A stretch of DNA of 64,000 bases from a virus. The translations under genes and the position numbers were made by a program. Positions 25,162 through 42,046 of this stretch are shown here, piece after piece. The stretch is from IMG/VR virus record IMGVR_UViG_3300002835_000026; one strand, 5' to 3'. How positions within the stretch are numbered: position 1 is the stretch's first letter; each line of letters begins with the position of its first letter. The notes under the pieces are model-generated. The model did not search any database. It was given only the letters and a program-made list of their open reading frames with translations, and had not been told where the DNA came from.

Positions 25162-27825
25162 TTAAAATTTAAAAAATTTGTGAACATTACGGTTAAATAT
25201 TGGAGCTCCCCACCCTAGATCTTCATACACTCCCTCTAATTTGTTTCTCATAACCGATTCAAATATTCGGTCACGGTCAATATATTTTTCAATAAACTCC
25301 ATTATTTCAGGAGGATCATTGTAACCATTAAATCCCATAACATCTATTTTATATGGATTTTCTTTTAGGTAAGCAATATACATTTTATCACCTATTTGGA
25401 ATGTTGGGAATTGTTTGTCTAGTTTTTTAAATCTTAGAATATCATTATAATAAACAGCTGATTTAGTATTAATAGGACATTTTAGGGCTAGTCTAGAAAA
25501 TATTTCACCTGCTCCTGGTCTAGCAGCTATATAACTAGACATTTGTTTTAGTCCTGTAGGTTTTAGTATTTGATGCCAGTCAATAGTTCTTAATGACTCT
25601 CTAAACACTAATAATTGCTCATCAATTGAAGATTTAGATTTACCATACATAATTTCTTTTAGAATATGTTCTCCAAAGTTTCTAAATAAAGGTGGAAAAT
25701 TAGATTTCATTAGATCTAAACCCATCATTACTAGTTCATCTGTTGGTACACCTTCTTTATTTACAATATGCATTGCATATCTTCTTTTACCAGCAAAATA
25801 ACCTCGTTCAAGTACTACCTCTTGTTTCAACTCAAAGTAATGAGGTTCGTCTGGGTATTTAACATTGAATAAATCTTTTACTAATGTATGTAGATGGTTA
25901 TTAGCTTCCTTTTGAATTTCAGTTGCAATCTCTAAAATATATTTAACCCACTCCTCTTTAGAGGCATTTATTAGATTTGGATTTCTTTTTAATGCTAAAT
26001 CTTTAACTTGAATAAATAGTGAGTCAGTATCTGATGTTACAATATAATCTTTATCATTTGAGTTTAATTGTTTATTCATCCATTCATTAACAAACTTAAT
26101 TGATTCTTGAGTCAGTCTTTGACCTGTTAAAGTAATTGCTTTACTAATAAACTTATTTCCGTCAGTATATCTCCATCCATTTTGAGCAAACACTCCATAA
26201 ACATCATTCAACTTAATCTTATAAGCATGTTGTCTACTATTATAAAATTCTCCTAATACAGGATCGTTTTTAACTTTATAAGCGTCTTTCATTAGTTTTT
26301 TATACTCCTGTCTTTTTACAAACCAGTCAGTTAAAATTTCACAAACAACACTTGATACATCTTTCTTAAATATAACTCCAGGTGCAGATATAATTAAATC
26401 ATTATGTTCAATTAGATTTACTAGATTTCCTACTGTTGTAACAGAAGTAGATACCGTTCTATCTTTTTTTACTTTTTCAATCTTAATTTTTCTTTCAGGA
26501 TCCATTTGTTTTAGTTCCCGCAGAGACCACTGGTTATCAAACTTACCATTGTTTACAACACGACCTACTAACGTTTCTATTCCCATGTTTAAAGAACGAA
26601 TTATAGAAGGATATAGTGAAGTAAAGTCTAAGTCAATCACCCAATCATATAGTCCAGGTACTGGGTCTTTTAGATAACCACCGGCATAACCAGCTAATAC
26701 TAAAATTTCATCATACTCATCTTTAGTCATTTGACCACTACGATAAAGTGCTTCTGCTTTTCTAGGATTAATCTCTTTTAAGTATGGATTATAAGTTGTA
26801 GGTTTATTAGGTGAAACTACTCCTTTTCGTTTTAGGTAAGTTAAAATAGCGCCCTCATTCAACATAGTTGAATAATAGATTTGTTCATATTCAGTATGAC
26901 ATAAATGAGCAATTGTAACTGTTAAGTCTATAAACTTCATTCTGTTTTCTAACTCAACAATGATTTCAACATCTCGAATGTTATACTCAATAAATTTTTC
27001 TGGGTCTTCTTTAAATAGGTTATCTAATGAACCTTGATATTCAACTTTACCTAAGTCAGCATATCTTAAACCAATATCATTTAATCGATATGATGGTTCT
27101 TGTTTCATAATAAACTTTTTAAACAACAACATATAGTCTAAGTGATTTACTCCTCCTATTACTATTGGTTGTTCTGTATCATATTCTACAGTTTTAATTT
27201 TACCTATTGGAGATAAACGTTTACCTTCACTTTCACCTGCTACTTTAGATATTCTATGATATAAATAAGGTATATCAAAGAAACCACTATTCCAACCTGT
27301 AACAATAGTTGGATCAAGTTGTTCCCATAATGCTAAAAATGCTTGTAATAACTCTAATTCAGTTGTAAATGGAACTACTTCTTTACCTGGATTGTTAATA
27401 GTGTTTAGATTATTTTGTTCATCTAAAATTAAACAATAATATTTTTTAGTAGTAGCATCATATACTGAAACTGAAGTAATTTTAGCTAATGCTTGTTTTA
27501 TACTTTCAGCAGTTAGTGCTCCTAATATCTCACACTCAATATCTAGGTAAACTACATTTTGGAATGATGGTGTATCATCAGTCTCATAATAAGTGTCAAC
27601 TAATAAACGAGTTATTTTATCAACATCTTTTTCATAGTACTTAGGATTTTTCCAGTCATCCATTTTTTTAGTAGCCGATACACAATCACCTTCTAATGTG
27701 TATTGATCTCCATTCTCATCCTTAACATAATAAGTGGGATAGTATTTAAAATCAGACCAACCACGTTTGTCATCTCTTAAATAATATTTTTTCTCGTTAA
27801 AATCGTAATAACAGCTTTGATACAT
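25162..27825 (-). CDS. family B DNA polymerase (gp43-like)
   Basis: Exo motifs DIE, GWNS..FDIPY, YNIRD; DFTSLYPSII, KIKLNDVYG, DTDS, KRRYA. Confidence 0.97.
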   Translation of the reverse strand: MYQSCYYDFNEKKYYLRDDKRGWSDFKYYPTYYVKDENGDQYTLEGDCVSATKKMDDWKNPKYYEKDVDKITRLLVDTYYETDDTPSFQNVVYLDIECEILGALTAESIKQALAKITSVSVYDATTKKYYCLILDEQNNLNTINNPGKEVVPFTTELELLQAFLALWEQLDPTIVTGWNSGFFDIPYLYHRISKVAGESEGKRLSPIGKIKTVEYDTEQPIVIGGVNHLDYMLLFKKFIMKQEPSYRLNDIGLRYADLGKVEYQGSLDNLFKEDPEKFIEYNIRDVEIIVELENRMKFIDLTVTIAHLCHTEYEQIYYSTMLNEGAILTYLKRKGVVSPNKPTTYNPYLKEINPRKAEALYRSGQMTKDEYDEILVLAGYAGGYLKDPVPGLYDWVIDLDFTSLYPSIIRSLNMGIETLVGRVVNNGKFDNQWSLRELKQMDPERKIKIEKVKKDRTVSTSVTTVGNLVNLIEHNDLIISAPGVIFKKDVSSVVCEILTDWFVKRQEYKKLMKDAYKVKNDPVLGEFYNSRQHAYKIKLNDVYGVFAQNGWRYTDGNKFISKAITLTGQRLTQESIKFVNEWMNKQLNSNDKDYIVTSDTDSLFIQVKDLALKRNPNLINASKEEWVKYILEIATEIQKEANNHLHTLVKDLFNVKYPDEPHYFELKQEVVLERGYFAGKRRYAMHIVNKEGVPTDELVMMGLDLMKSNFPPLFRNFGEHILKEIMYGKSKSSIDEQLLVFRESLRTIDWHQILKPTGLKQMSSYIAARPGAGEIFSRLALKCPINTKSAVYYNDILRFKKLDKQFPTFQIGDKMYIAYLKENPYKIDVMGFNGYNDPPEIMEFIEKYIDRDRIFESVMRNKLEGVYEDLGWGAPIFNRNVHKFFKF

Positions 27826-27897: not shown

Positions 27898-28617
27898 TTA
27901 ATTATTTATTATCCATTGGTTTAATTTATTTAGATTCATTGTTATATCATTAGGAGCGTTGATTGGTTTTTCTGATGGTTCAGTTTTAAACTCATCTTTA
28001 GTTAATTGAAACCAAGTTTTAACATCAGTTCCTACATTAAATATTCCTGTCGCTTTTGTTTTAATTAACTTAATAATTAAATTAGATATTACATTAACAT
28101 AATCACCATTTGTTAATTGATCAATCCAAGCTTGTTTATAAGGAAATGGATATGGTTTATGAGATGTTCTAATAATTAAATAATTTTTTGATTTAAGTTC
28201 TATATAACCATCAGCTAATAATTTAGTATGACAATACCAAGTATTTAAAGTTGAAGGAACATCTTCTTCAGATGCATTATGTTTTGAATTAGCATAAACA
28301 TAATCTGTTGATATATGAATTAATTTTATATTATACTTATTACAAAAATCAGTTAAATCAGCTACTCCTTTATAATTAATAATCCATTGAGATTGTTTAT
28401 TGTCTGAATAAGTATCAGTATTAGCTATACAATTAATAATAGTATTATATTTAAGTATTTGAGTTTTTAATTCAAGAGAATCTTGAATAAAATACTTATT
28501 AAAAGTATTAGATTGGGTTAAATCAAAATTATCTTTTTTTCTTGAAATATAATCCCAACCTGATTGTTTTGCTAGCTCAGATCCTAATAATCCATCTCCT
28601 AAAATAACTACACTCAT
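27898..28617 (-). CDS. rmlD: RmlD-like NDP-4-keto-sugar reductase
   Basis: LGDGLLG, HISTDYVY, YCHTK, IIRTS. Confidence 0.82.
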   Translation of the reverse strand: MSVVILGDGLLGSELAKQSGWDYISRKKDNFDLTQSNTFNKYFIQDSLELKTQILKYNTIINCIANTDTYSDNKQSQWIINYKGVADLTDFCNKYNIKLIHISTDYVYANSKHNASEEDVPSTLNTWYCHTKLLADGYIELKSKNYLIIRTSHKPYPFPYKQAWIDQLTNGDYVNVISNLIIKLIKTKATGIFNVGTDVKTWFQLTKDEFKTEPSEKPINAPNDITMNLNKLNQWIINN

Positions 28618-29240
28618 TTTGTAATATCATAATAACCACCAATAATAAATTTCATTTTAGTATATATAGTACCTTCATTTTCTTCTTCTTTATATTTTGA
28701 TATTGGTATCACTCTGAAGTCACAGCTAATTCTTGTATTTAATGTTATATTTTGTTTATTTCCATGGGTTAAATTACAACCATTCCACATAACTGTTTGT
28801 CCATATAATGTATTTATAGGAGCAAAATCCCATTTATCTTCTTCACTTTCTGCCCAAATAGTATTTTCATTGTAAGCGTCAGTGAATGGTAAGAAAAAAT
28901 TAATTTCTTCTTTATTATGTTTATATGATTTATCTTTATGGTACTCAAATACACTTAAATTATTTACAAGATGAGTTCTAAAAGTTGGTATTTTTTGATA
29001 AACAATATCTTCATTAAATAAAGGCTTTATAATATTATAAATAAATTTATTATAAAGTGGTAAAAATTTATCTAAATTAGAATAATATAATTTATGCCAA
29101 TGTGTTGATTGATCAGTACCTTTTATAAATAAATTATAATTTTGTTTATTATGGATTTTTTCTAAATTTTCTTCTTGTAAAATATCCTGAATAATTGTTC
29201 TAAATGGATATTCATTAATATTAAAATTAATATACTTCAT
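28614..29240 (-). CDS. StrG-like Fe(II)/2OG dioxygenase
   Basis: YQKIPTFR, HKD...H, INFFLP, HGN, TRISCDFR (HxD...H triad and Arg). Confidence 0.75.
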   Translation of the reverse strand: MKYINFNINEYPFRTIIQDILQEENLEKIHNKQNYNLFIKGTDQSTHWHKLYYSNLDKFLPLYNKFIYNIIKPLFNEDIVYQKIPTFRTHLVNNLSVFEYHKDKSYKHNKEEINFFLPFTDAYNENTIWAESEEDKWDFAPINTLYGQTVMWNGCNLTHGNKQNITLNTRISCDFRVIPISKYKEEENEGTIYTKMKFIIGGYYDITK

Positions 29241-29245
29241 ATATA

Positions 29246-30535
29246 TTATTTATCAAATTTTTTAATTACTTGTTCTATATAATCAAATACTTCTGGAGTA
29301 TAATGAGGAGCAGCTCCGATAAAGAATACTTTGTCTAATACTTTATTTGCTTCTGGATAATCTTTATAATCACCTAAGAAACTATATCCGGGATGCATTA
29401 AAATATTTCCAGCGAAATAATTACGTGTTTGGATTTTATTAGCTTCTAAATACTCTACTAATCTATGTTTTAGTCCTTCTTCCTTACAAATAAATGGAGT
29501 TCCAAACCAACATGCTTCTGCTTTATCTAACATTTTTGGAGTACAAATATTAGGAATATTATCAGTAAATATTTTTTCTAATGTTTCTTTAGATATATTT
29601 CTACGAGTTTCAATTTCATTAAATTTATCTAATTGAACTGAACCGATTGCTCCTTGTAAATCTAATGGTTTTAAATTATAACCCATATTAGAAAATACAT
29701 ACTTATGATCTATTACTCCATCATATGATTCTAACCAATTATCAAAACGTTTACCGCATGTACCACATGATAATAAATTAGCTGAACCTACACAATAACA
29801 ATCTCTACCCCACCAAGCAATACTAACCATTAATTTTTTTAATTCTTCATCGTCAGTACAAATCATTCCTCCTTCACCTGTTGAAATATGATGAGCGGGA
29901 TAGAATGAATTAGAAAATGCTACATAATACTCATTTAAATATTTTCCATCCCATTTAGAACCTAAACTATCACAATTATCACCTACTAATTTTAAGTCAT
30001 ATTTTTTACAAATTTCTAATAATTTATCAAAATCAGGTGGATTTCCTAATACAGGAGAAACAAAAATTGCTTTAGTACGAGGTGTAATTTTAGCTTCAAT
30101 TTGATTTAAATCAAAGTTTAATGTATCCCATTCAATATCAATGAATACTGGTTTTAATCTATTTTGATGTAATACAGATATTGTAGTTGCAAAACCAACA
30201 GGTGAAACAATTACTTCATCATCATCAGCCCAATTAAAACGTTTCTTTAAAGCAGCTATTAATACTAAATTAGCTGACGAACCTGAGTTAACCATAAATG
30301 AGTATTTTGTATTAAATTGTTTTGAGAATTTTCTCTCAAATTTAAATACACTTTCACCTGATGTAATCCATTTTCCGTTTAAAAAGGTATTCATCGCTGC
30401 TTCTATCTCATTATTGTCCCAATATGGACCTGAATAATAGATAGGTGTCTTACCTGGTTCGAAATTTTTAGAATTATAAATATAAGGAGCAACATGGTTC
30501 CCTACTAACTCTTTGATATTGTCTTTTAAGATCAT
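29246..30535 (-). CDS. rfbH: RfbH/E1-type NDP-4-keto-6-deoxyglucose 3-dehydratase (DegT family)
   Basis: VNSGSSANL, DNCDSLG, SFYPAHHISTGEGG (His replacing the PLP Lys), GRDCYC...CGKRF Fe-S motif. Confidence 0.88.
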   Translation of the reverse strand: MILKDNIKELVGNHVAPYIYNSKNFEPGKTPIYYSGPYWDNNEIEAAMNTFLNGKWITSGESVFKFERKFSKQFNTKYSFMVNSGSSANLVLIAALKKRFNWADDDEVIVSPVGFATTISVLHQNRLKPVFIDIEWDTLNFDLNQIEAKITPRTKAIFVSPVLGNPPDFDKLLEICKKYDLKLVGDNCDSLGSKWDGKYLNEYYVAFSNSFYPAHHISTGEGGMICTDDEELKKLMVSIAWWGRDCYCVGSANLLSCGTCGKRFDNWLESYDGVIDHKYVFSNMGYNLKPLDLQGAIGSVQLDKFNEIETRRNISKETLEKIFTDNIPNICTPKMLDKAEACWFGTPFICKEEGLKHRLVEYLEANKIQTRNYFAGNILMHPGYSFLGDYKDYPEANKVLDKVFFIGAAPHYTPEVFDYIEQVIKKFDK

Positions 30536-30538
30536 ATT

Positions 30539-31036
30539 TTAGTAATTTGTTTTACCTTGAAACTGACCGTCATATAGGTCTTGAGGAATAGGATTTGTAA
30601 GCATATAAAACTGGCATACACGAGCATTTTCCTCAATGAATATAGTTTCAGCTTCTAACATTAATGTAGTTCCCATTTCTCTAGTCATAAATCCTGGATC
30701 CCACATAGGTGAATTAATATGAGCACCTCCTCTATAAATAGAAGAACGTGATGTGATAAATCCTGTAGCATGAGAAGGAATTGAAACACCTTCATTAAAG
30801 GTTAAAGCATAAGCTCCTCTTTCTAGTCTCCACATTTGTCTACCTTCAATACTTGTTAAAGGTATTTCAATAAATAATGAAGGATCAACTACTGTTTTTT
30901 CTTGGAAAACTAATACTCCACCAATAATTTTTTCGATTTTTTTAACTGATAAATCAATACCTACTTGATTTACTTTATGGTAATCGGTACCATTAGTTTC
31001 CAGATATTGGAATACTTGATGTCCTGTTAGCAACAT
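30539..31036 (-). CDS. trimeric dUTPase/dCTP deaminase family protein
   Basis: GIDL, SRSS..R, WDPGF, RVCQ, YDGQFQ. Confidence 0.85.
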   Translation of the reverse strand: MLLTGHQVFQYLETNGTDYHKVNQVGIDLSVKKIEKIIGGVLVFQEKTVVDPSLFIEIPLTSIEGRQMWRLERGAYALTFNEGVSIPSHATGFITSRSSIYRGGAHINSPMWDPGFMTREMGTTLMLEAETIFIEENARVCQFYMLTNPIPQDLYDGQFQGKTNY

Positions 31037-31761
31037 AATTTTAATTTTATCATTTCTAATACTTCTTGTTTTGCTGTTTTTGTATGATCAGCGAACACAC
31101 CTGATACTTCACTTGTAACCATACTAGCACCTTGATGTTTAACTCCTCTACAAGATACACATTGATGACCAGCATGTATAATAACCATTACTCCAATATT
31201 ACCTTCACAAATTTCATTAATTGCATTATGGATTGCTACTGTTAATTGTTCTTGAATTGCACCTCTTCTACCAAAATGTTCTACAATACGATTTAATTTA
31301 CTTAAACCAATTACTTTACCTTCTAGTCCTGGAATATAAGCAATATGAACATTACCTAAGATAGCTTGATGATGATGAGAACACATACTTGTTACTGGAA
31401 TGTCTCTTTCTAAAACAATACCATTATATCCGTCACTTGGAAATGCTGTAATTTCAGTTGGTATTTCATATCTACCTCTCCATAAATCATTTACATATGC
31501 TTTAGATACACGACGTGGTGTTTCCATACTATTTGGATCATTTTCCCAATCTACACCTAATGCGGTTAAAAATTTACCATATGCTTTTTCAGCATTAGTA
31601 ATGATTTTTTTCTTTTCTTTGTCATTTAAAGAACGATGTTGTCCTTTATCAATTAGGTCTTTTAATTGCAATGAAATACCATTTGCAAAACCTGCTTGTG
31701 CTGTCTCTAATTTCTCGATGTCAGCTGTTTTACGTCTATTGTTTATAACTTTATCTTTCAT
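31027..31761 (-). CDS. folE: GTP cyclohydrolase I
   Basis: ETPRRV, SMCSHH, GLSKLNRIV, IQEQLT, HQCVSCRG. Confidence 0.96.
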   Translation of the reverse strand: MKDKVINNRRKTADIEKLETAQAGFANGISLQLKDLIDKGQHRSLNDKEKKKIITNAEKAYGKFLTALGVDWENDPNSMETPRRVSKAYVNDLWRGRYEIPTEITAFPSDGYNGIVLERDIPVTSMCSHHHQAILGNVHIAYIPGLEGKVIGLSKLNRIVEHFGRRGAIQEQLTVAIHNAINEICEGNIGVMVIIHAGHQCVSCRGVKHQGASMVTSEVSGVFADHTKTAKQEVLEMIKLKLCC

Positions 31762-31767
31762 ATAACT

Positions 31768-31800
31768 GTATTATAATAATTTATTTTAATAATGCCAAAC
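31768..31800 (-). promoter_or_regulatory. variant early/middle promoter
   Basis: GTTTGGC-N-TATAATAC, 20 nt spacer. Confidence 0.55.
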
Positions 31801-32303
31801 TATAAGGCATATAAAACTGGATGGTTTCTAAGATGACCATTTTCATTATCCATTCCCATTCCGCATAACCACTCTTCATCTACTTCAAATCCCCAAACCA
31901 TATTTTCTAATGGCTCAGTCTTTTTTCTTTTAGCTAAAGTTACAACGTTAATTGATTTTGGATTTTTAATTTTAATGAACTCAATTAAAGCCTTCATTGT
32001 ATTACCTGAGTCAAAAATATCGTCTACTAAGTAAACATGTTTTCCTTTAATTGGTATCTCTAAATCTTTAGTAATTTTAATATCACCTTGATTATTTTTA
32101 GAAACATAACTTTTTACTCTAACAAAATCACATTCAATGTCTGTTGTTAATGCTTTTACTAATTCAGTATAAAACATAAAACCACCATTTAGAACACAAA
32201 CCATAACAACTGGTGTTTTATCTCCTCTATGTTCGTCTGAAATGTTTTTTGCTAGTATTCTTGTTCTTATTTCTATTTGTTGTTGTCCAAATAGTTTGAT
32301 CAT
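31800..32303 (-). CDS. hpt: hypoxanthine/guanine-type phosphoribosyltransferase
   Basis: VLNGGFMF, KSY, LVDDIFDSGNT (PRPP loop), WLCGMGMD, LRN. Confidence 0.9.
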   Translation of the reverse strand: MIKLFGQQQIEIRTRILAKNISDEHRGDKTPVVMVCVLNGGFMFYTELVKALTTDIECDFVRVKSYVSKNNQGDIKITKDLEIPIKGKHVYLVDDIFDSGNTMKALIEFIKIKNPKSINVVTLAKRKKTEPLENMVWGFEVDEEWLCGMGMDNENGHLRNHPVLYAL

Positions 32304-32581
32304 AACAATTTTTTAATTTTTATAGAACCTTCATATTTTTTGTAACCTGTCTCACTTAAAACTACTACTGCAGGTAAGAATTGAACATCAAATAATTCTG
32401 AGATAAATTCTGTTTCTTCTTCATCATTATCAATTTCTACTAACTTATGGTCTGGTCTTGCCTTAGCAATTTCGTTTATTGTAGATTTAATTTTAGTGCA
32501 ATGATCACACCATTCTGTATAAAAGAAAAATATAGATTTTTCCTTACGTTGGATTGATTCTTTAAGTAATTTCTTATTCAT
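32300..32581 (-). CDS. thioredoxin
   Basis: WCDHC, cis-Pro FLPA. Confidence 0.88.
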   Translation of the reverse strand: MNKKLLKESIQRKEKSIFFFYTEWCDHCTKIKSTINEIAKARPDHKLVEIDNDEEETEFISELFDVQFLPAVVVLSETGYKKYEGSIKIKKLL

Positions 32582-32584
32582 GGT

Positions 32585-32593
32585 GATAAATAT
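32585..32593 (-). promoter_or_regulatory. putative late promoter ATATTTATC
   Basis: 3 nt upstream of ATG 32581. Confidence 0.4.
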
Positions 32594-32594
32594 A

Positions 32595-33254
32595 TTATAA
32601 AATAGAAAGTAATTTATCTGTATCTACTACTTGTCCAGCGTAATTAAATATATCATATATCTTTGAATTAAACATTTCGAAATTACTTGGGTAGATATAA
32701 TAATCGGATGGTTGGAAAATTTTAGCTAATCGTGAATATACTTTTTGCTCAAAAATTGGCTCTGTTGGTATTGTATCTATAGTAAATAAATATTTAGCTG
32801 CTTGTATATTATAAGCTCCATGACCTACAGAAATTGAACCAGGAAATGTTAAATTATATTTTACATCACCCCATTGTGATCCTATTATTTTTACACCATC
32901 TTCAAGTAATTTAATCCATTGTTTTTGTTGTTCAAAAATAGTATCATCTACCCAATAATCATAAGCTGTTTTAATTACATACTTAGCTCCTAGATATTCT
33001 AATAGATTTAAACCTATATTAATTTTATCTAAATCACCTTTACCATAATGATTATCATCTTTATTTAATAATTCACAAACATAAAGATCACATAATTTAG
33101 CTATTTCTTCATTTGGAATACTATCAATTAAAACTATATAACTATTAGGGTAATACTTTTTAATTTGTTTAAGATATTTTATTAAGTGATTTGTTTTTTC
33201 AATTGCTAATGAACCTCCAATATAAGAAGTTATTAAGAAATATGTTTTATCCAT
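32595..33254 (-). CDS. hypothetical protein, possibly GT-A-like
   Basis: 219 aa; IVLIDS and KYVIKTAYD patterns. Confidence 0.6.
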   Translation of the reverse strand: MDKTYFLITSYIGGSLAIEKTNHLIKYLKQIKKYYPNSYIVLIDSIPNEEIAKLCDLYVCELLNKDDNHYGKGDLDKINIGLNLLEYLGAKYVIKTAYDYWVDDTIFEQQKQWIKLLEDGVKIIGSQWGDVKYNLTFPGSISVGHGAYNIQAAKYLFTIDTIPTEPIFEQKVYSRLAKIFQPSDYYIYPSNFEMFNSKIYDIFNYAGQVVDTDKLLSIL

Positions 33255-33435
33255 GTATATGAATTTTTCTAAGTGTAAATTTATGTCCTGAATCTGAGTT
33301 GATTTCTAATAATGCTTTAAAGTCTTCAGCTTTATCTTTAGTTTCAAACTCTAATACTTCTCCATGACCATCTAAGATGATCACAGGTATAGTAGCTTTT
33401 TCTGTTTCAATATGTTTAATAATAACATAACACAT
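33247..33435 (-). CDS. hypothetical protein
   Basis: 62 aa, overlaps both neighbours. Confidence 0.7.
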   Translation of the reverse strand: MCYVIIKHIETEKATIPVIILDGHGEVLEFETKDKAEDFKALLEINSDSGHKFTLRKIHIHG

Positions 33436-34205
33436 TATACACCTCTCTTTTGTCCGTAAGCAATAATATGATCTCTACCAGTCCAATTATAACCTTCTCT
33501 AGTACACATTTCAATTGAAATTGGATACATTCTAGTTAATTCTTCTGCTGTATCACCAGCTGGCATAATCCATGTTTTGTTTTTAGGAATACCTAACTCA
33601 ACTCTAAACGCTTCAATTTCAACTAAGTTTTCTTCTGTTCCATCCCATACTGGTTTTAAATGATAATCAGAATGAAATTCAATCATCTGTTTAATTTCAG
33701 GAATGTTAAGACGGTATTTGTTATGTTGGTCCACAAACTTTTGATCCACTTCTTTACCAAGTGGAGTAAGAATCCCAACCCTAGGAACACTATTGCTAAA
33801 CTTAGGGCTAATAGATAAGAGACCGATAGGAAAATCAGTCTCAATAAAGTGACTACCTTCAGTTTCCATAGTGATAAGAATACCTCTTTCATTTGCAAAA
33901 TGTGTTAATTCGTTTACTAATACTGGATGCATTGTAGGTGCGCCACCTGTTAACATCATTTCTTTAATATGAGGATTTTCATCATATATTTTAACGATGT
34001 CATTGAATGTAAATTTACCTTTTTCAGGGTGAATACTTGTATACCAAGAATCACACCATCCACCTTCACCAAACCAACATCTGTGAGTACAGCCTGTTGT
34101 TCTAACAGCAACTGTAGGTCTTCCTTGTCTACTACCTTCACTTTGAACACAAGGATAAATTTCTATCACTTGTATTTTTTTATTGTAATCTAATATTCTA
34201 TCCAT
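33435..34205 (-). CDS. queE: 7-carboxy-7-deazaguanine synthase (radical SAM)
   Basis: EIY..QSEG...G.P...VRTTGC, CTHRCWFGEGGWCDS, LTGG, METEG, SISPK. Confidence 0.92.
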   Translation of the reverse strand: MDRILDYNKKIQVIEIYPCVQSEGSRQGRPTVAVRTTGCTHRCWFGEGGWCDSWYTSIHPEKGKFTFNDIVKIYDENPHIKEMMLTGGAPTMHPVLVNELTHFANERGILITMETEGSHFIETDFPIGLLSISPKFSNSVPRVGILTPLGKEVDQKFVDQHNKYRLNIPEIKQMIEFHSDYHLKPVWDGTEENLVEIEAFRVELGIPKNKTWIMPAGDTAEELTRMYPISIEMCTREGYNWTGRDHIIAYGQKRGV

Positions 34206-34210
34206 AACTA

Positions 34211-34690
34211 TTATTCTGCTTCAAAAATTGATGAATTCTTACCGTGTTCAAAACACTCTACTTTAATTACTTTACATCTAGCACCATCTGTATTAGATAA
34301 TACTTCATTAAACTTATCTGATACTAGCTTGGCTAATGATTCACAACCCATTTTATCCATTAAATGTACTTTAGCTAATCCCATTTGTCCTAATTGTTCA
34401 AATACATCAGCAAACGGATCATCTTTTTCAACTAGTAATGTATGGTCCCACATATGGTCCATCCAATCTTTTAATCCATTTCCTACTGGTTTTGATTTAA
34501 ATCCTCCAAAATCAACAATCCAATTCATTTCATCTAATTGTTTATCTAAATCTGGTTGATTAGATGCAAACCATACTTTAAAGTAAATTCCATAACCGTG
34601 TAGTAATTGACAATGTGAATGTTGCGCTTTCCATTGTCTAATTGCAACTGAATAATTGTCAAATACTTTCGTTGAAATATATCTAGCCAT
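34211..34690 (-). CDS. queD: 6-carboxytetrahydropterin synthase, variant
   Basis: HCQLLHGY, WIVDFG, DHT, GCE; adjacent to queE. Confidence 0.88.
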   Translation of the reverse strand: MARYISTKVFDNYSVAIRQWKAQHSHCQLLHGYGIYFKVWFASNQPDLDKQLDEMNWIVDFGGFKSKPVGNGLKDWMDHMWDHTLLVEKDDPFADVFEQLGQMGLAKVHLMDKMGCESLAKLVSDKFNEVLSNTDGARCKVIKVECFEHGKNSSIFEAE

Positions 34691-34691
34691 A

Positions 34692-34940
34692 TTAATTATT
34701 ATTGAAAAAATTTACTATATCATTTATTGGTTTTGCTCCTATAAATCGAGCTTTTTCAACTCCATTATCTACTAAAACTACAGTAGGAACACTAGTTACA
34801 TTATATTGTTTAGTTAATGTGACATCATAGTCTACATTTACTTTATTTACTGGAATTTGTTTAGCAACTTGTTCCATAATTGGGCCTAATATTTTACATG
34901 GTTGACACCATTCAGCACTGAAGTATATAAATCCTTTCAT
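34692..34940 (-). CDS. thioredoxin
   Basis: FSAEWCQPCK, VTSVPT. Confidence 0.92.
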   Translation of the reverse strand: MKGFIYFSAEWCQPCKILGPIMEQVAKQIPVNKVNVDYDVTLTKQYNVTSVPTVVLVDNGVEKARFIGAKPINDIVNFFNNN

Positions 34941-34941
34941 A

Positions 34942-35139
34942 TTAAAATTGTTTTTCGTCTATTAATTCTATTTCTTTATTTTGTTGTTTTAAATATTTTG
35001 TACTTGAATATAGGAGTGGTTTTGCTTCATCCCAATTAGCTGACCAAACTGATTGACCACCTAATAAACCTACAAATACCTCTCCATCCTTATTCAAAAC
35101 TATATAAAACGGTTGTTTTTCTTCTTTTTGTTTTTTCAT
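34942..35139 (-). CDS. hypothetical protein
   Basis: 65 aa ORF in operon. Confidence 0.7.
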   Translation of the reverse strand: MKKQKEEKQPFYIVLNKDGEVFVGLLGGQSVWSANWDEAKPLLYSSTKYLKQQNKEIELIDEKQF

Positions 35140-35291
35140 ACTAACTCTTCTACAATACCAATCAACTCACTTAATATAAGTATAACAGCTGCTAAAGCCA
35201 AGTTAAAAGATAAAGTAATATAACCTAATATTCTAATTCCTGATTTAAGGAAACTAACACGTTGATGTAATTTAGGATCTGGTTGTTTCAT
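35136..35291 (-). CDS. small membrane protein (51 aa)
   Basis: Read manually: MKQPDPKLHQRVSFLKSGIRILGYITLSFNLALAAVILILSELIGIVEELV; overlaps queC end. Confidence 0.7.
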   Translation of the reverse strand: MKQPDPKLHQRVSFLKSGIRILGYITLSFNLALAAVILILSELIGIVEELV

Positions 35292-36192
35292 GTTCTTTTA
35301 ATACTTTAGTTACTTCATTTACTACATGTTCCCATGTTACCGGACCTGTTTCGTCTGCATATTCTGCTGGGTCAGGACGACCTAATTTTAAAAACGCTTC
35401 TACACGTTCAACTGATGATGCTGATTTATAATCTGAATACCATTTACCGCTAAAAGTAATTACTTGCTTAGTGCCAAATAAGTCAATATCTGTTTCAACT
35501 TGATCTTCAATATATATTGGCTTATAAGACGTATTAGTCCGGCTATATACTGCGTTAAAGTCAAGGCCTAATGTATTGCAACACGCTGCGCCATCCTCTA
35601 ATATAGTGTATTTATCGCCGGTTAAGTACGGAGTATAATATGTTACTTTCTCAGCACCCCAATTACCTGCTTTAAACGCTTCATAATCAATATCACGAAA
35701 CTCTTGTCTACAATCTGGATAGATAGCGTGGTCACCTGCATGAATACCCATAGCAATTACACACTCAGTATTCTTTTGTTCAGCAATTGATAATGCAACA
35801 GCCTGAATAATTGAACTAAATATTTTATTGCGATTTGGAACTACAGTTACTTTCATATTTTCTTCAGCATAATGACCTTCAGGTACTTCAGAACCACCGG
35901 ATACTAATGATGAATTTAATAATTGTGCTAAACCATCTAATTTAATTACTTGATGTTTAACTCTAAGAAAATGATGTAAAATAACTTCTGATGTTTCAGA
36001 TTTGTATTTAACTTCATCTGCTTTACTATTTAAATAATCAACTAATTCTTTAGCTCGTTCTAATTCTACATTGTGTTTTTGACCATAGTCAAAGGATAAT
36101 GCTGTTACTTCATAACCATTGGCAAGTAGATGAAGCAGTAAGCTGGAGCTATCCATACCTCCACTTAGTGATAATACTGCTTGTTTTTTCAT
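35272..36192 (-). CDS. queC: 7-cyano-7-deazaguanine synthase, cysteine-less variant
   Basis: SLSGGMDS PP-loop, FDYGQKH..E, VPNRN, HAGD..YPDCR. Confidence 0.93.
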   Translation of the reverse strand: MKKQAVLSLSGGMDSSSLLLHLLANGYEVTALSFDYGQKHNVELERAKELVDYLNSKADEVKYKSETSEVILHHFLRVKHQVIKLDGLAQLLNSSLVSGGSEVPEGHYAEENMKVTVVPNRNKIFSSIIQAVALSIAEQKNTECVIAMGIHAGDHAIYPDCRQEFRDIDYEAFKAGNWGAEKVTYYTPYLTGDKYTILEDGAACCNTLGLDFNAVYSRTNTSYKPIYIEDQVETDIDLFGTKQVITFSGKWYSDYKSASSVERVEAFLKLGRPDPAEYADETGPVTWEHVVNEVTKVLKEHETTRS

Positions 36193-36193
36193 T

Positions 36194-36550
36194 TTAGAAT
36201 GTTACTGTATAAATTGTTTTAATAGATAAATCTTCAGCTTTATATTTAGCTAAGTCTTTATCTCTAGCTACTTCAAACTCTACTGATTGACCATTTTTAG
36301 TTTGAACCCATAATTCTTTAATGAATTCAGTTGATGTAATTTCGTTTTCGTCATTACGTGTTACTTTGAACACTGTTACTTTATTTTGCATAATTGCGTT
36401 TTGGTTAATTGATGAAATTGTTAAATTTGGGGTTGTTAAATTTGGTACTGTAAAACTAGGAGTATAACTACTAATATATGTACCTGATGATGTTGTTCCA
36501 ATACCTGTTGTAAATGTTTGTGCCATGTTATTGTTGTTTAAATAGTTCAT
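36194..36550 (-). CDS. hypothetical protein
   Basis: 118 aa; Thr/Ser-rich N-terminus, start uncertain. Confidence 0.7.
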   Translation of the reverse strand: MNYLNNNNMAQTFTTGIGTTSSGTYISSYTPSFTVPNLTTPNLTISSINQNAIMQNKVTVFKVTRNDENEITSTEFIKELWVQTKNGQSVEFEVARDKDLAKYKAEDLSIKTIYTVTF

Positions 36551-36728
36551 AATCTTGTTTCTTTAATTCGTAATCCATACTATCACGTTTGTACTCCATT
36601 TCTTTATATTTAAGATCTTGTTTATAAGATTCTACAAATACTGTTAATAAAACCCAAACAGATAATCCTGCAAGGTAAAACAATATAATGTCTTGTTTTC
36701 TTTTAATCCAATCAATTAATCTTCTCAT
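36528..36728 (-). CDS. small membrane protein
   Basis: Single TM helix. Confidence 0.65.
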   Translation of the reverse strand: MRRLIDWIKRKQDIILFYLAGLSVWVLLTVFVESYKQDLKYKEMEYKRDSMDYELKKQDYELFKQQ

Positions 36729-37519
36729 TTTATAAACGATTTAAATTTGTTAATGTTACTTTGTATAACTTCTATTTCTTTTTTACTAAATTCTCTCTCC
36801 ATAAACTCTTCAATTTTATTTTTTGGTTTAGTTAATAAACCATATTCCTTATAAAACTGACCTAACGCACCTACAATAACTGGATTAGATGTGTCAACAG
36901 ACTTAATAAAAGCATATTTTGGATCATTATAATATAGGAATTCTTGGGGTAACGAGGCTCCTAATAAGTGAACATAATGACTATCTTTAATAATTTTTTC
37001 TTTATATAACCTAGAAATTATATAGATACGATTCATCATTTGATTAACTAATGGATTTAGATGATAACCATCATGTTGATAATATATAGATGAATGATTA
37101 AATGCAAAATGAGTATAACCTAAAGCAATACACTGATTATATAGATTCATAAAATCACCTAATGTATGTCCTTGCATCACTACCATTAATTCCGTTTCTT
37201 TAGGTAGTTGTTCTTTAATAACATTCATCCAATACTTAGCATTTCTATGAGTGAGTGCTGTATCATTCCATTCATCAGGAACAATAAAAATATCTGGTTT
37301 GATTAGATTAATTTTTTCAATTAAATCTTTTTCAGTGTGAGTCACACCTTCAAATAAACCATTATCACAAATTATAAAACGACCATGTCGTCTAGCTCTT
37401 ATAAAATATTCTTTATATGCTGTATGTTTATCAATTAAATGAGGAAGACAATAATCATAGTCGTTCCATAAATAAGATTTGTTTAATAAATTGAGAGGGA
37501 GTTCATGTGATACTTGCAT
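36725..37519 (-). CDS. TGT-fold, DpdA-like deazaguanine transglycosylase
   Basis: TIM-barrel TGT-type motifs ICDNG, VPD, VMQG, VHLLG, SVDTS; heads the que operon. Confidence 0.68.
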   Translation of the reverse strand: MQVSHELPLNLLNKSYLWNDYDYCLPHLIDKHTAYKEYFIRARRHGRFIICDNGLFEGVTHTEKDLIEKINLIKPDIFIVPDEWNDTALTHRNAKYWMNVIKEQLPKETELMVVMQGHTLGDFMNLYNQCIALGYTHFAFNHSSIYYQHDGYHLNPLVNQMMNRIYIISRLYKEKIIKDSHYVHLLGASLPQEFLYYNDPKYAFIKSVDTSNPVIVGALGQFYKEYGLLTKPKNKIEEFMEREFSKKEIEVIQSNINKFKSFIK

Positions 37520-37533
37520 AACTTTATTTTATA

Positions 37534-37565
37534 TAAATATAAAAGATTTTTTTAATTTGCCAAAC
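37534..37565 (-). promoter_or_regulatory. early/host-type promoter for the dpdA-like/que operon
   Basis: GTTTGGC-N-TATATTTA, 19 nt spacer. Confidence 0.7.
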
Positions 37566-38061
37566 TTAATTTTCTTTGTTCTAACCATTTTGGATAATGT
37601 GAAGCTATCTCAGTTAAAGTACCTTCTATTTCCTCAACATAATCATTTGCTAAATCTTTAGTACCACCTAAATGATACCTTAATGCTTCTTTAAAATCTT
37701 TAATACGATTAAACTCATCTTTCATCATATCTTCTCTTAAATGTTTTAAACGTTTAGCATATGATACTATGATTTCATCTTCTTTTTCTCGTCTGATGTT
37801 AAATCGTAGATTTTGCTCTCTAATAGCTAAAATTTCTTCAGCCATCCAATAATGCTCATAATCTATATACTTAGCATAAGGAGTATAATCAAAATCTCCG
37901 TTATCTATTTTGTTTTGTAGTGGTTGGTATTTGTGGAGATCTTTATGGATTGGAAATCGTCTCCACCAATAAAATTTATTAGCTCCATTCCATTTAGGTT
38001 TTTGAGGTGCTTTAATCTTATGATTAAATCCTAATTCTTTTAATATATCTTTTACTGTCAT
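37552..38061 (-). CDS. hypothetical protein
   Basis: 169 aa; FYWWRRF and IDNGDFD motifs. Confidence 0.75.
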   Translation of the reverse strand: MTVKDILKELGFNHKIKAPQKPKWNGANKFYWWRRFPIHKDLHKYQPLQNKIDNGDFDYTPYAKYIDYEHYWMAEEILAIREQNLRFNIRREKEDEIIVSYAKRLKHLREDMMKDEFNRIKDFKEALRYHLGGTKDLANDYVEEIEGTLTEIASHYPKWLEQRKLSLAN

Positions 38062-39139: not shown

Positions 39140-40354
39140 TTACTTCATTAAATATGAAACCAACTCTTTCTTTAACATTAAGCTTTTAAACTTATTAGCA
39201 TCACCATTATAGATTGACTTTACAATATGGTACTTTAAATCAACAGCAAATATATCTCCTATGATAATCTCTTTAATTCGATTAATTAAGCTATCATCTA
39301 TTTTATTATCACTTGAATAAAATAAACTATAATTGATTAATCTGGTTGCTAATGTTGATGCAATATCTGCTCTATAATTTTTGTCAGTTCCAATACATCC
39401 TTTTAATTCACCTAAAATATATTTTTCATTGTCATGAAATAACACATCATGTATTTTTACTAATTTATCTAATTTGTTATTGATAAACATTGTGAACATA
39501 CTTGCAAATTCAACACCAACACTACCTTCTCCAATCATTTGAATTAATGGTAATGATTTATCAAACGATTCTAATGATGATATTGAATTAAAAAACATTG
39601 ATGTACTTCTTGGATTGACATTTTTGGTAATTAGTTCAGGATGTAATAACATAAAATTGATACATCTGTTATCTAATTGATTTTGTTCAGCCCATTCCGC
39701 CCAACATGAAACATCATACTTTAAATTAACTGAGATGAATCGTGTTTTTTGAGCAGAGTCAATTGAATTAACAATATAATCATCTGTATCAGGATTACTT
39801 GTTAATATGATGTGCCAGTCTTTAGGTAGTTTCCAGCTAATATATTCTTGTCTATCAATTAACTCCATTACAGCTTGTATGAATCTCATATCAGCTCTAT
39901 TCCAGTCATCTAATAATAGAATACCACCTTTTGTTTTACCACTAATCCATTCAGGTGGACAATAACTCATTCGATTTTTACCTGTAAATTTATACCCTAA
40001 TTTAGTGTACTCATCTACTGCATGTTCATCAATCCAAACACATTTCTCTTCCTCGTTTTGACATACTTCAAATTGTCTGATTGGAAAACCTACTATGTCT
40101 CCTAACTCTTCAATTTGAGCTAAATTTAACTTAACAAAATCCACATTCAACTCTTTTGCTAATTGAATAATTGATGATGTTTTTCCAATACCACTTTCTC
40201 CTACTACTTCGACACTTACTACTGGTTTGCCTTGTTCCTGAAGAAATCGATTGTTACTAACAATGTGATTTAGGAATGATTTTAAATCTTTTGGATTTAG
40301 GGACACTTGATTTGATGATGAAGTCTCCGTACTTTTTTTAGAACCTTTTGCCAT
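39140..40354 (-). CDS. MoxR-like AAA+ ATPase
   Basis: GESGIGKT, LLLDDWNRAD, LTSNP, DSAQKTRF, NPRS. Confidence 0.9.
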   Translation of the reverse strand: MAKGSKKSTETSSSNQVSLNPKDLKSFLNHIVSNNRFLQEQGKPVVSVEVVGESGIGKTSSIIQLAKELNVDFVKLNLAQIEELGDIVGFPIRQFEVCQNEEEKCVWIDEHAVDEYTKLGYKFTGKNRMSYCPPEWISGKTKGGILLLDDWNRADMRFIQAVMELIDRQEYISWKLPKDWHIILTSNPDTDDYIVNSIDSAQKTRFISVNLKYDVSCWAEWAEQNQLDNRCINFMLLHPELITKNVNPRSTSMFFNSISSLESFDKSLPLIQMIGEGSVGVEFASMFTMFINNKLDKLVKIHDVLFHDNEKYILGELKGCIGTDKNYRADIASTLATRLINYSLFYSSDNKIDDSLINRIKEIIIGDIFAVDLKYHIVKSIYNGDANKFKSLMLKKELVSYLMK

Positions 40355-40381
40355 AATTTTTATCTTTTATTTCTTTATACC

Positions 40382-40414
40382 TAAATATAACAAAGATTTA
40401 TTGGGAAGCCAAAC
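40382..40414 (-). promoter_or_regulatory. early/host-type promoter
   Basis: GTTTGGCT-N-TATATTTA, 20 nt spacer. Confidence 0.75.
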
Positions 40415-40631
40415 TCTCTGGTTCATATATTTCAATGTTCTTTTTATATAACTCAATAAATTTACCCCAACTATGCACATCAATTACTAATTGATATAAC
40501 TCTGTTTTAGTTGCTTTAATATCAGCTTGTTCATCACTTAAGTTAAATAGAATGGCCATAGCTACTACTAAATTGTCATGGTCGTCTGACTTAATCATGC
40601 TAGTCAGTTGTTTAATTTGTTCTGGTTCCAT
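40398..40631 (-). CDS. hypothetical protein sharing a helical motif with 38104..39135
   Basis: LTSMIKSDDHDNLVVAMAILFN. Confidence 0.7.
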   Translation of the reverse strand: MEPEQIKQLTSMIKSDDHDNLVVAMAILFNLSDEQADIKATKTELYQLVIDVHSWGKFIELYKKNIEIYEPESLASQ

Positions 40632-40632
40632 A

Positions 40633-41805
40633 TTAATTCATGTGTACTACTTTGCCTGGAAATTTTGTTGTTTTAGTTTCACCATCTTTTGTCATTACCC
40701 ATAACATTGGACGTTTAGGAGGTGTAGGAGCAGGTGCATAACCATCTGTAAAAAATACTAATGTGTTATATGTTTGAATATGCTGATTAAAATAATCAAT
40801 TGCTGGTTGAAAATCTGTTCCTCCTCTACCTGTAATAGCAATCTCTTTATCTCCTTTATATTTAAATATATTAGTAATTTTAGCATCACATTCCATTACT
40901 GTCACTTCATGACCTGTTTTATGAATATGTAATAATTGACCTAAAAACTCAACTAAATTATCACTACTAACTGAACCTGAAGTATCAATTGCTACTAATA
41001 TATTTTTCTTATGTTTAATTTTTAAAGCTGGATTACCTGGAAAACGTTTATTGTATTTGTTTCTAGATTTTTTAGTAACTACTTTATCAGATGATGATAT
41101 AAAACGTTTAAAATATGATTTCCAATCAGTAACTGGTACTGGCAATTCAAATAAACTATCAATCCATTCTACTAATGAACCAGGTAATGTACCTCTAAAA
41201 TTAGAACCTTTTTTATCTAAATGTTCAGCAATCTCTTTTACTTGATGTTCTAATTGTTTACCAATTAATTTTTTAGTTGCCTCATCCATATTTGGATCAC
41301 CCCACATATCATGACCATCAGCAAATTCACAACTATCATCTCCTAATCCATCAAGCCATTCTTGAACTTGAGGACAAGTTGATGCTTTATCCTTAATCAT
41401 ATCATAATAAACTCTTGTACCTGCTTTTTCAGGTAAAACTAAATTAGGAACTGAAGTTAAACTTAACCACTCCTTTGATTTGTTTTGTTCGTCTATAAAT
41501 TGATTGATTTCTATATCCGCGGCTATGTTTCTTAGTTTAGCATCCGGATACATTGTTGTGTCTAATAGAAAGTGATGAAACATGATATGTAACAATTCAT
41601 GTTTTAATAATCCTATTCGTTGAAGTTCAGGTAATGAATTCCAATATTCAGGATTAATCTCTAAAGATTGGTTAATACCTTGTAATGATACACAAGCAGT
41701 TGGAATGTTTGTGTTTTCTCGTTTGTTTAATGTTAATAGGAACAAACCATAAAACGGTTCATCTAACATTAATTTCTTGGCTATTTTACTTAAATCTATA
41801 TTCAT
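40633..41805 (-). CDS. metallopeptidase-vWA protein (DUF2201-like)
   Basis: HELLH, NIAADIEIN, AIDTSGS, RGGTDF, FTDGY. Confidence 0.9.
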   Translation of the reverse strand: MNIDLSKIAKKLMLDEPFYGLFLLTLNKRENTNIPTACVSLQGINQSLEINPEYWNSLPELQRIGLLKHELLHIMFHHFLLDTTMYPDAKLRNIAADIEINQFIDEQNKSKEWLSLTSVPNLVLPEKAGTRVYYDMIKDKASTCPQVQEWLDGLGDDSCEFADGHDMWGDPNMDEATKKLIGKQLEHQVKEIAEHLDKKGSNFRGTLPGSLVEWIDSLFELPVPVTDWKSYFKRFISSSDKVVTKKSRNKYNKRFPGNPALKIKHKKNILVAIDTSGSVSSDNLVEFLGQLLHIHKTGHEVTVMECDAKITNIFKYKGDKEIAITGRGGTDFQPAIDYFNQHIQTYNTLVFFTDGYAPAPTPPKRPMLWVMTKDGETKTTKFPGKVVHMN

Positions 41806-41842: not shown

Positions 41843-42046
41843 CTATTGTAAAGTTTGAGTACCTTTTATATGTTGTGGATGGTAAGGACAATGTCGACAA
41901 CCATTTCCACAACAATAACCACGATTAATAAGAAAATGGGTCGTGAGAACACGATACCCATTTTCTATATAGTAATCTTGAGTGTTATTGGATTTCGCAA
42001 TTTCCTCCGGCACAGGCGAGTTCGTCTTGTCTTGCTGTGTTGTCAT
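41843..42046 (-). CDS. small Cys-rich protein (DUF5522-like)
   Basis: DYYIENG..VLT..F...RGYCCGNGCRHCPY. Confidence 0.8.
   Translation of the reverse strand: MTTQQDKTNSPVPEEIAKSNNTQDYYIENGYRVLTTHFLINRGYCCGNGCRHCPYHPQHIKGTQTLQ

Follow-up and report, generated by a model that had tools for sequence, protein, structure and literature searches.

A DpdA3-type 7-deazaguanine cluster with a 6-oxopurine phosphoribosyltransferase beside folE: recycling of exchanged guanine as the favoured role

How phages with a DpdA3 transglycosylase replace every guanine of their DNA is an open question, and it is raised again by a locus in the IMG/VR virus record IMGVR_UViG_3300002835_000026. We analysed a stretch of 64,000 nucleotides of this record (hereafter, the window), in which a compact operon at positions 30539-37519 of the minus strand joins a protein with the fold of tRNA-guanine transglycosylases (TGTs) to homologues of QueC, QueD, QueE and FolE and to a phosphoribosyltransferase (PRT) of the 6-oxopurine type. 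What does a PRT do in such a cluster? An earlier reading of the letters alone (the original prediction) proposed that it ribosylates a deazaguanine base, so that the base enters DNA through the pool of deoxynucleoside triphosphates, and named the salvage of guanine released by DpdA as the alternative. We find that the TGT-fold protein belongs to the DpdA3 subfamily and that the PRT and folE are associated across related loci, and we hold with moderate confidence that the PRT recycles the guanine released by base exchange rather than building the modified nucleotide.

The transglycosylase and the predicted base

The TGT-fold protein is a member of the DpdA3 subfamily. In tblastn comparisons it was 33% identical to the DpdA of the Flavobacterium phage immuto (gp65) over 99% of its length (E 7e-30), and 35% identical over its whole length to CP220 gp056 (E 8e-26), a hypothetical protein also found in relatives of CP220. 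When a profile built from 36 viral-contig relatives was aligned with hhalign to CGPG_00065 of phiST, the probability was 98.6% and the E value 7.5e-16; CGPG_00065 is the founding protein of the subfamily (PMC10516641). The AlphaFold2 model of the protein (pLDDT 95.1, pTM 0.92) retrieved exclusively tRNA-guanine transglycosylases among its 50 best Foldseek matches in the PDB (E ~1e-8, TM 0.6-0.68 on the query). Seven positions, D52, N53, D82, Q116, H184, G187 and D209, do not vary across the 36 sequences, and in the model they are found where successive strands end. The catalytic and base-binding residues of TGT (D102, D156, Q203 and D280), of which some of these positions may be the equivalents, sit at strand ends. 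In the hhalign alignment, D52, D82, Q116, G187 and D209 fall on the DNG, LD, QG, LGAG and TDS motifs of phiST, respectively. Placement from sequence only had been tried and set aside: the protein has no Pfam match and a PDB profile search gave only E 1.2 to the bacterial DpdA 7ui4, and it was the fold search and hhalign that decided. Among the DpdA types, the gene at 36725..37519, for which the original prediction had given no more than the fold, is placed in DpdA3 by tblastn, hhalign and Foldseek.

The gene shares one operon with those of FolE, QueD, QueE and QueC. The window is AT-rich (~29% G+C), all genes between 25 and 48 kb lie on the minus strand and, according to the list of open reading frames (ORFs), adjacent ORFs of the operon overlap or are spaced by 1-38 nt. 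We named the genes by Pfam, NCBIfam and PHROG scans of the ORFs of the window. In the direction of transcription, the first half holds the 264-aa TGT-fold protein, a 66-aa and a 118-aa ORF, the 306-aa QueC-like protein, two small ORFs, a thioredoxin and QueD, and the second half QueE, a 62-aa ORF, a 219-aa ORF, another thioredoxin, the 167-aa PRT, FolE and a 165-aa protein of the dUTPase/dCTP-deaminase fold (Table 1). The genes that the original prediction had named were all recovered on the minus strand and at the expected coordinates by the ORF list, Pfam and NCBIfam, as were the family B DNA polymerase (PolB) and the ribonucleotide reductase (RNR), here of class II, that it had placed nearby. 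Beyond that inventory, the cluster contains the 219-aa ORF, four small ORFs and the 118-aa and 169-aa proteins flanking DpdA3. The only cultured relatives of the window at the DNA level are the immuto phages, whose queE is 83% identical to that of the window over 306 nt.

The characterized DpdA3 phages replace all of their guanines, CP220 with dADG (100%), phiST with dDG and immuto with fdPreQ1 (PMC10516641). By its gene content, the cluster of the window is predicted to be a DpdA3-type system that replaces dG in the phage DNA with a 7-deazaguanine. Which base this would be depends on QueC and on the tailoring enzymes. The SGGMDS (PP-loop) and YPDCR motifs of the QueC-like protein align with those of PDB 2pg3 and 3bl5, and the alignment to the PDB QueC structures ends at about residue 176; the C-terminal 130 residues are divergent and no cluster of cysteines is found after residue 176. 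Canonical QueC has four zinc-binding cysteines in its C-terminal part. The score to TIGR00364 is 117 bits, under the cut-off of 150. The QueC of immuto is 63% identical and of the same zinc-less form and, as immuto carries a preQ1 derivative in its DNA, this form presumably still makes preQ0. Homologues of QueF, DpdN and Gat-QueC were not found in the window by tblastn, so that the lack of queF and Gat-QueC noted in the original prediction holds within the window; DpdM and DpdL are also missing from it. Since the window has no QueF, DpdN or other tailoring gene, we predict dPreQ0 as the final nucleoside; should QueC go no further than the amide, it would be dADG.

A phosphoribosyltransferase that accompanies folE

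The PRT aligns end to end with PDB structures of HGXPRTs (E 7e-27), with 31-36% identity over the full length, and HGPRT was its best match in every library searched. It carries the motifs of the family: a KSY flexible loop, a VDDIFDSGNT loop for phosphoribosyl pyrophosphate (PRPP) with Asp98, an aromatic stacking residue and a GxGxD loop. The motifs TLAKR and WLCGMGMD, quoted in the original prediction, are present in the sequence. An alignment search found relatives of the PRT on 330 viral contigs, and we counted the genes within 10 kb in the best 80 of them. The neighbourhoods contained QueE in 74 cases, FolE in 67, QueD in 61, QueC in 55 and DpdA3 in 49; 77 contigs had que genes and only three had none, and the median distance from the PRT gene to folE was 53 nt. 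The functional tie between PRT and cluster assumed in the original prediction is supported by these numbers, and the pattern that it had named as refuting, with the PRT gene (hpt) just as frequent where que genes are absent, was not observed. The PRT-bearing clusters include some whose DpdA3 is only 30-40% identical to that of the window as well as immuto-like clusters with QueF and DpdN. Further relatives were found on 170-kb metagenomic contigs, and the two closest ones from bacterial assemblies, on contigs of metagenome-assembled genomes (MAGs), are also inside que clusters, one with QueD, QueE, FolE and MazG (L168) and the other additionally with QueC and DpdA3 (L169). This HGPRT-type clade is almost confined to phage 7-deazaguanine clusters.

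Another type of PRT can take the same place. We compared 23 folE-containing loci anchored on relatives of the DpdA3 of the window and found the HGPRT-type PRT in three, a small PRT of 130 aa beside folE in ten and no PRT in the remaining ten. The immuto annotation lists this small PRT, which has archaeal purine PRTs and the XGPRT of E. coli among its kin (Gpt type), misses the flexible-loop segment and retains the RGG and DDICDTG motifs, the Lys and the Trp, that is, the canonical purine contacts. Two unrelated PRT families are interchangeable at the position adjacent to folE. The Gpt type has a relative in phiST and another directly after folE in the Brevundimonas phage MaInes, and as a fused domain it precedes FolE at the N-terminus in approximately 34 phage records of Vibrio, Pseudomonas, Stenotrophomonas, Variovorax, Xanthomonas and Sphingomonas. 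The one fusion record that was checked, that of VpKK5, also encodes a gene annotated as queuine tRNA-ribosyltransferase. Because the Gpt-type relatives recur in phiST, in MaInes and in the FolE fusions, the link between a 6-oxopurine PRT and FolE arose several times and is not limited to DpdA3 phages. The record of CP220 gave no match to PF00156 and contains no PRT.

The presence of a PRT in the type phages also changes how unusual the window appears. The original prediction called the cluster rewired, which is an overstatement, as immuto and phiST encode a PRT too and the 2023 paper does not mention it (PMC10516641). The string "phosphoribosyl" is absent from the text of that paper and likewise from the paper on the Pseudomonas phage iggy, and our literature search found no paper combining DpdA, guanine, salvage and phosphoribosyltransferase.

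The least specific explanation of this association would be general purine salvage, with the PRT taking up the guanine and hypoxanthine that the breakdown of host nucleic acid sets free, so as to raise the GTP and dGTP pools, and having no specific tie to the base exchange. The canonical HGPRT motifs and the cellular relatives of the enzyme are consistent with this, and so are its location in a module of replication and nucleotide metabolism with RNR and PolB and its dispensability in many relatives. However, a generic gene would not be expected to track folE so closely as to be found in que clusters in 77 of 80 relatives, usually at a distance of about 50 nt, and in unrelated phages folE is again accompanied by PRTs of independent families or fused to one. 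We consider general salvage improbable.

Proposed guanine recycling and nucleotide-level alternatives

The role that we favour for the PRT closes a loop between the exchange reaction and the entry of the pathway. Going by their family assignments, FolE, QueD, QueE and the zinc-less QueC would lead from GTP to preQ0, or only as far as the amide 7-amido-7-deazaguanine (ADG), and DpdA3 would swap guanine in DNA for the deazaguanine base. The PRT would combine the released guanine with PRPP to give GMP, which host kinases would turn back into GTP, the substrate of FolE. From the chemistry, such a loop would be stoichiometrically closed, with one GTP spent and one guanine freed per modified position, and the PRT would in addition clear the poorly soluble guanine, which competes in the exchange reaction. 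The dUTPase-fold protein would act as a nucleotide pyrophosphatase. The PRT gene is translationally coupled to that of the thioredoxin Trx1.

The binding pocket of the PRT points to guanine as the substrate. In HGPRT, the Asp in the acidic PRPP loop contacts N7 of the purine. This residue, D98, is invariant together with S65 and Y66 both in an alignment of 18 sequences and in all 65 non-redundant PRT ORFs of the phage clade that we compared; a guanine substrate is favoured by this, since 7-deaza bases have no N7 for the Asp to contact. It is also favoured because the Gpt-type PRT with its canonical contacts substitutes in sister clusters, and because the pocket does not vary with the final base: the active-site columns are identical in clusters with QueF, most of which also have DpdN, and in clusters without QueF, which make different bases. 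The gene arrangement argues in the same direction, as the partner to which the PRT is joined or next to which it is encoded is FolE, which consumes GTP at the entry of the pathway, and not QueC, QueE or DpdA. Finally, CP220 reaches 100% dADG (PMC10516641) with no PRT at all, which again favours recycling; as CP220 and ten of the 23 DpdA3 relatives do without the enzyme, we see the PRT as a helper and not as the route into DNA.

The pocket does differ from that of cellular HGPRT/Hpt (TIGR01203; PDB 4qri, 1hgx and 3ohp), with which the PRT shares the fold and all catalytic motifs: it has Arg for Lys, Trp for Phe, KSY for SSY and DDI for EDI, and the enzyme is encoded inside a phage DNA-modification operon. 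In three PDB alignments R126 falls on the Lys that binds O6, and W145 aligns with the stacking Phe. Across 136 library representatives, the O6-binding position is Arg in 50 and Lys in 85, and the combination of Arg126, Trp145, KSY and DDI separates the phage clade from 71 canonical representatives. The same combination recurs in MAGs of Flavobacteriales and Crocinitomicaceae (L170-L174). In the three Flavobacteriales genomes that we searched, the protein bearing it is the sole HGPRT homologue, and in L170 it stands among ordinary chromosomal genes, encoding an asparagine synthase, VanY and an EamA transporter. These chromosomal homologues also score under the TIGR01203 cut-off, at approximately 116 bits. 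We had considered the signature as a specificity switch and dropped the idea once it turned up in a chromosomal context in three Flavobacteriales genomes, in the one HGPRT homologue that each of them has. Because sole HGPRT homologues of Flavobacteriales carry it, the Arg/Trp signature seems to be a trait of the lineage, passed on from the host phylum, and not an adaptation to a new base.

Several observations nevertheless weigh against recycling. The PRT scores 141 bits to the TIGR01203 HGPRTase model, under the equivalog cut-off of 150, and it has an Arg in place of the O6-binding Lys. Much of the co-occurrence of PRT and que genes is drawn from one related group of T4-like phages, and part of it is therefore inherited synteny. 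DpdA3 activity could not be reconstituted in E. coli (PMC10516641). A purine-type PRT, TubE, has been shown biochemically to couple 7-carboxy-7-deazaguanine (CDG) to PRPP (PMC6112128), so that the type of reaction put forward in the original prediction does exist. Lastly, a nucleotide pyrophosphatase stands almost always beside folE, and kinases stand by DpdA3 in CP220 and immuto; both hint at a nucleotide-pool arm, for which recycling by itself would not account.

The TubE precedent leads to the reading closest to the original prediction. The PRT could resemble ToyH and TubE and couple a 7-deazaguanine base (CDG, ADG or preQ0) to PRPP; the ribonucleotide would then be phosphorylated, reduced by the class II RNR with the thioredoxins and incorporated by PolB, the dUTPase-fold or MazG-like enzyme would remove dGTP, and DpdA3 would mop up residual G. 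Such a route would agree with the near-confinement of the PRT clade to que clusters, with the Arg, the invariant Trp and the score under the HGPRTase cut-off, and with the presence of a nucleotide pyrophosphatase, two thioredoxins, RNR and PolB close by. It would also fit the 100% replacement in DpdA3 phages, the failed reconstitution of DpdA3 and the ADG nucleoside seen in CP220-infected cells (PMC10516641), and a route through modified dGTP was once proposed for Campylobacter phages (PMC6884629). On the other hand, it has to accommodate an invariant Asp directed at an N7 that the proposed substrate would not have, an Arg/Trp signature shared with the only HGPRT homologue of Flavobacteriales genomes, a Gpt-type substitute with canonical contacts and a pocket independent of the final base. 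PRT-FolE fusions are found in other phage lineages, where VpKK5, the one checked, has a differently annotated transglycosylase, and CP220 and ten of 23 relatives have no PRT. Moreover, Pfam revealed no GMP reductase and no Nudix or HAD tailoring genes among the ORFs of 30.5-41.8 kb. On balance we regard this route as unlikely. Of the interpretation given in the original prediction, the part that stands is the assignment of the cluster to 7-deazaguanine DNA modification with a PRT tied to it; ribosylation of a deazaguanine for the nucleotide pool does not stand as the best reading, given that the Trp and the Lys-to-Arg change are shared with the sole HGPRT homologues of Flavobacteriales and that the N7-directed Asp is invariant. 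The alternative that it named, salvage of the guanine released by DpdA, fits the evidence better.

The pyrophosphatases and kinases require separate consideration. Downstream of folE, and usually within 300 nt, a MazG-like gene is present in 66 loci and a dUTPase-fold gene in 24, and no locus has both (pyrophosphatase loci: L011, L034, L047-L050, L086-L165, the window and L248). The MazG-like gene overlaps folE even in phiST, an unrelated siphovirus (L248:11176-11763); by sequence, the MazG-like protein of L089 has no match in the PDB. The dUTPase-fold protein of the window has the archaeal-type dUTPase NF002598 as its best NCBIfam match, with 88 bits and under the cut-off, and it matches PDB 9w59, a probable dUTPase. 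The DpdA3 gene of CP220 lies between one for an HD phosphohydrolase fused to a P-loop kinase and one for an AAA_28 kinase (L002:10868-13361), and immuto has an AAA_28 kinase related to that of CP220 near its DpdA3. These enzymes could be ordinary dUTPases and kinases, or they could belong to a nucleotide-level scheme that excludes dGTP. Because the best match of the window protein is a dUTPase, the pyrophosphatases are possibly plain dUTPases.

If the second case applied, the exchange itself might take place on nucleotides: the pyrophosphatase would supply dGMP, dGTP or dG, DpdA3 would swap the guanine on it for the deazaguanine, the PRT would recycle the freed guanine, and kinases would rebuild the triphosphate for PolB. 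A minimal barrel of 260 aa without the zinc subdomain would suit such a substrate, and the coupling of MazG-like or dUTPase-fold genes to folE, phiST included, and the kinases around DpdA3 in CP220 and immuto would find an explanation, as would complete replacement combined with failed reconstitution on DNA in E. coli (PMC10516641). Against this, we found no kinase in the cluster of the window by Pfam or tblastn; used as tblastn queries, the AAA_28 kinase, MazG and small PRT of immuto and the kinases of CP220 gave no match in the window. The pyrophosphatases could also be the plain dUTPases that the best NCBIfam match of the window protein suggests. To our knowledge, no TGT-fold enzyme acts on mononucleotides. 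We consider exchange on nucleotides very improbable. In its broadest form, a nucleotide-level explanation would make DpdA3 clusters in general pre-replicative systems, in which the base becomes a nucleotide through a TubE-like PRT or through the action of DpdA3 on a guanine nucleotide, the folE-coupled MazG-like or dUTPase-fold enzyme destroys dGTP and the polymerase writes the modified base; this appears doubtful to us.

Related systems, neighbouring genes and implications

Among the known DpdA3 clusters, that of the window stands as a variant, with an HGPRT-type for a Gpt-type PRT, a dUTPase-fold for a MazG-like protein and no tailoring genes. Like the DpdA3 systems of CP220, phiST and immuto (PMC10516641), the window has a DpdA3 homologue, FolE, QueD, QueE and a QueC, the last of the immuto type (63%). 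As in immuto and phiST, it encodes a PRT and has a pyrophosphatase by folE, and the phage, an uncultured one from water, has a T4-like backbone related to that of immuto. It differs in its HGPRT-family PRT, where immuto and phiST have the loop-less Gpt type, and in the dUTPase-fold protein, which takes the place of the MazG-like enzyme of sister clusters. It further lacks QueF, DpdN, DpdL and the AAA_28 kinase, so that dPreQ0 or dADG is predicted instead of fdPreQ1 or dDG, and its DpdA3 is only 33-35% identical to those of immuto and CP220.

Outside the DpdA3 phages, two systems bear comparison. The tubercidin and toyocamycin clusters of Streptomyces, with TubE and ToyH, also place a purine-type PRT beside homologues of GTP cyclohydrolase I, QueD and QueE (PMC6112128). 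Unlike the window, and compared here by their published description, they include a GMP reductase, a decarboxylase and a Nudix or HAD phosphatase, contain no transglycosylase and make free nucleoside antibiotics. The PRT-FolE fusions of Queuovirinae-like phages (Vibrio phage VpKK5 gp32 and Pseudomonas phage Baskent_P4_1) similarly unite, within a 7-deazaguanine cluster, FolE and a 6-oxopurine-type PRT whose PRPP loop is intact. These PRTs differ from that of the window in being Gpt-type, loop-less and fused, and the transglycosylase is of another type, annotated as queuine tRNA-ribosyltransferase in VpKK5, and not DpdA3.

The remaining genes of the operon are less easily interpreted. The 169-aa and 118-aa proteins on the two sides of DpdA3 are possible partners of the transglycosylase. 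The two thioredoxins may act with the class II RNR or with the enzymes of the que pathway; a thioredoxin of the Trx2 type lies between QueC and QueD in 53 of the 80 PRT loci. The 219-aa ORF has no Pfam or NCBIfam match, and the nearest ESM Atlas cluster has the automatic label "putative glycosyltransferase" (0.98). It is confined to the window and the near-identical contig L083 and is not a conserved part of the cluster; it could be a phage fibre-glycosylation gene or a DNA-tailoring enzyme.

Two gene pairs adjoin the operon. Immediately after the dUTPase-fold gene, at 27898-30535 on the minus strand, come a DegT-type aminotransferase and an RmlD/epimerase-like protein, which places sugar-nucleotide enzymes beside the modification block and PolB. 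Between the deazaguanine cluster and RNR, at 39140-41805 and also on the minus strand, an AAA (MoxR-like) ATPase is paired with a DUF2201 metallopeptidase/VWA protein.

Table 1. Genes of the 7-deazaguanine operon and associated genes, with coordinates in the window
Feature	Coordinates	Strand	Remarks
Class II RNR	41985-43838	-	near cluster
169-aa conserved protein	37552..38061	-	directly upstream of DpdA3; no Pfam, NCBIfam or PHROG match; homologues of 27-92% identity adjoin DpdA3 in many loci
DpdA3-subfamily 7-deazaguanine transglycosylase, 264 aa	36725..37519	-	minimal TGT TIM barrel without zinc subdomain
66-aa ORF	36528..36728	-	overlaps DpdA3 stop; kept in closest relatives
118-aa conserved protein	36194..36550	-	between DpdA3 and QueC; homologues of 39-84% identity at the same position in many DpdA3 loci; no family match
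QueC-like protein, 306 aa	35272..36192	-	PF06508 1.6e-36
Trx2 thioredoxin	34692..34940	-	PF00085 3e-16; between QueC and QueD
QueD (6-carboxytetrahydropterin synthase)	34211..34690	-	PF01242 3.5e-10; TIGR03367
QueE (radical-SAM 7-carboxy-7-deazaguanine synthase)	33435..34205	-	TIGR03365 1.2e-15
Glycosyltransferase-like ORF, 219 aa	32595..33254	-	between QueE and thioredoxin Trx1
Trx1 thioredoxin	32300..32581	-	PF00085 9.6e-11; stop overlaps PRT start by 4 nt
HGPRT-family 6-oxopurine PRT, 167 aa	31800..32303	-	PF00156 3e-25; 38 nt upstream of folE
FolE (GTP cyclohydrolase I)	31027..31761	-	PF01227 6e-46; TIGR00063; first pathway enzyme
dUTPase/dCTP-deaminase-fold protein, 165 aa	30539..31036	-	PF22769; overlaps folE stop
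PolB, family B DNA polymerase	25162-27825	-	near cluster

Together with its relatives, several hundred in number, the locus shows that folE is regularly accompanied in such clusters by a 6-oxopurine PRT, in three interchangeable forms, and by a nucleotide pyrophosphatase. If the PRT recycles guanine, it would be a helper step that makes complete replacement affordable, and probably one of the components still lacking for a reconstitution of the pathway in E. coli. Action on a deaza base would instead establish a second, pre-replicative route to modified DNA. Were the nucleotide-pool reading true, it would explain the 100% replacement and overturn the view of all 7-deazaguanine DNA modification as post-replicative.

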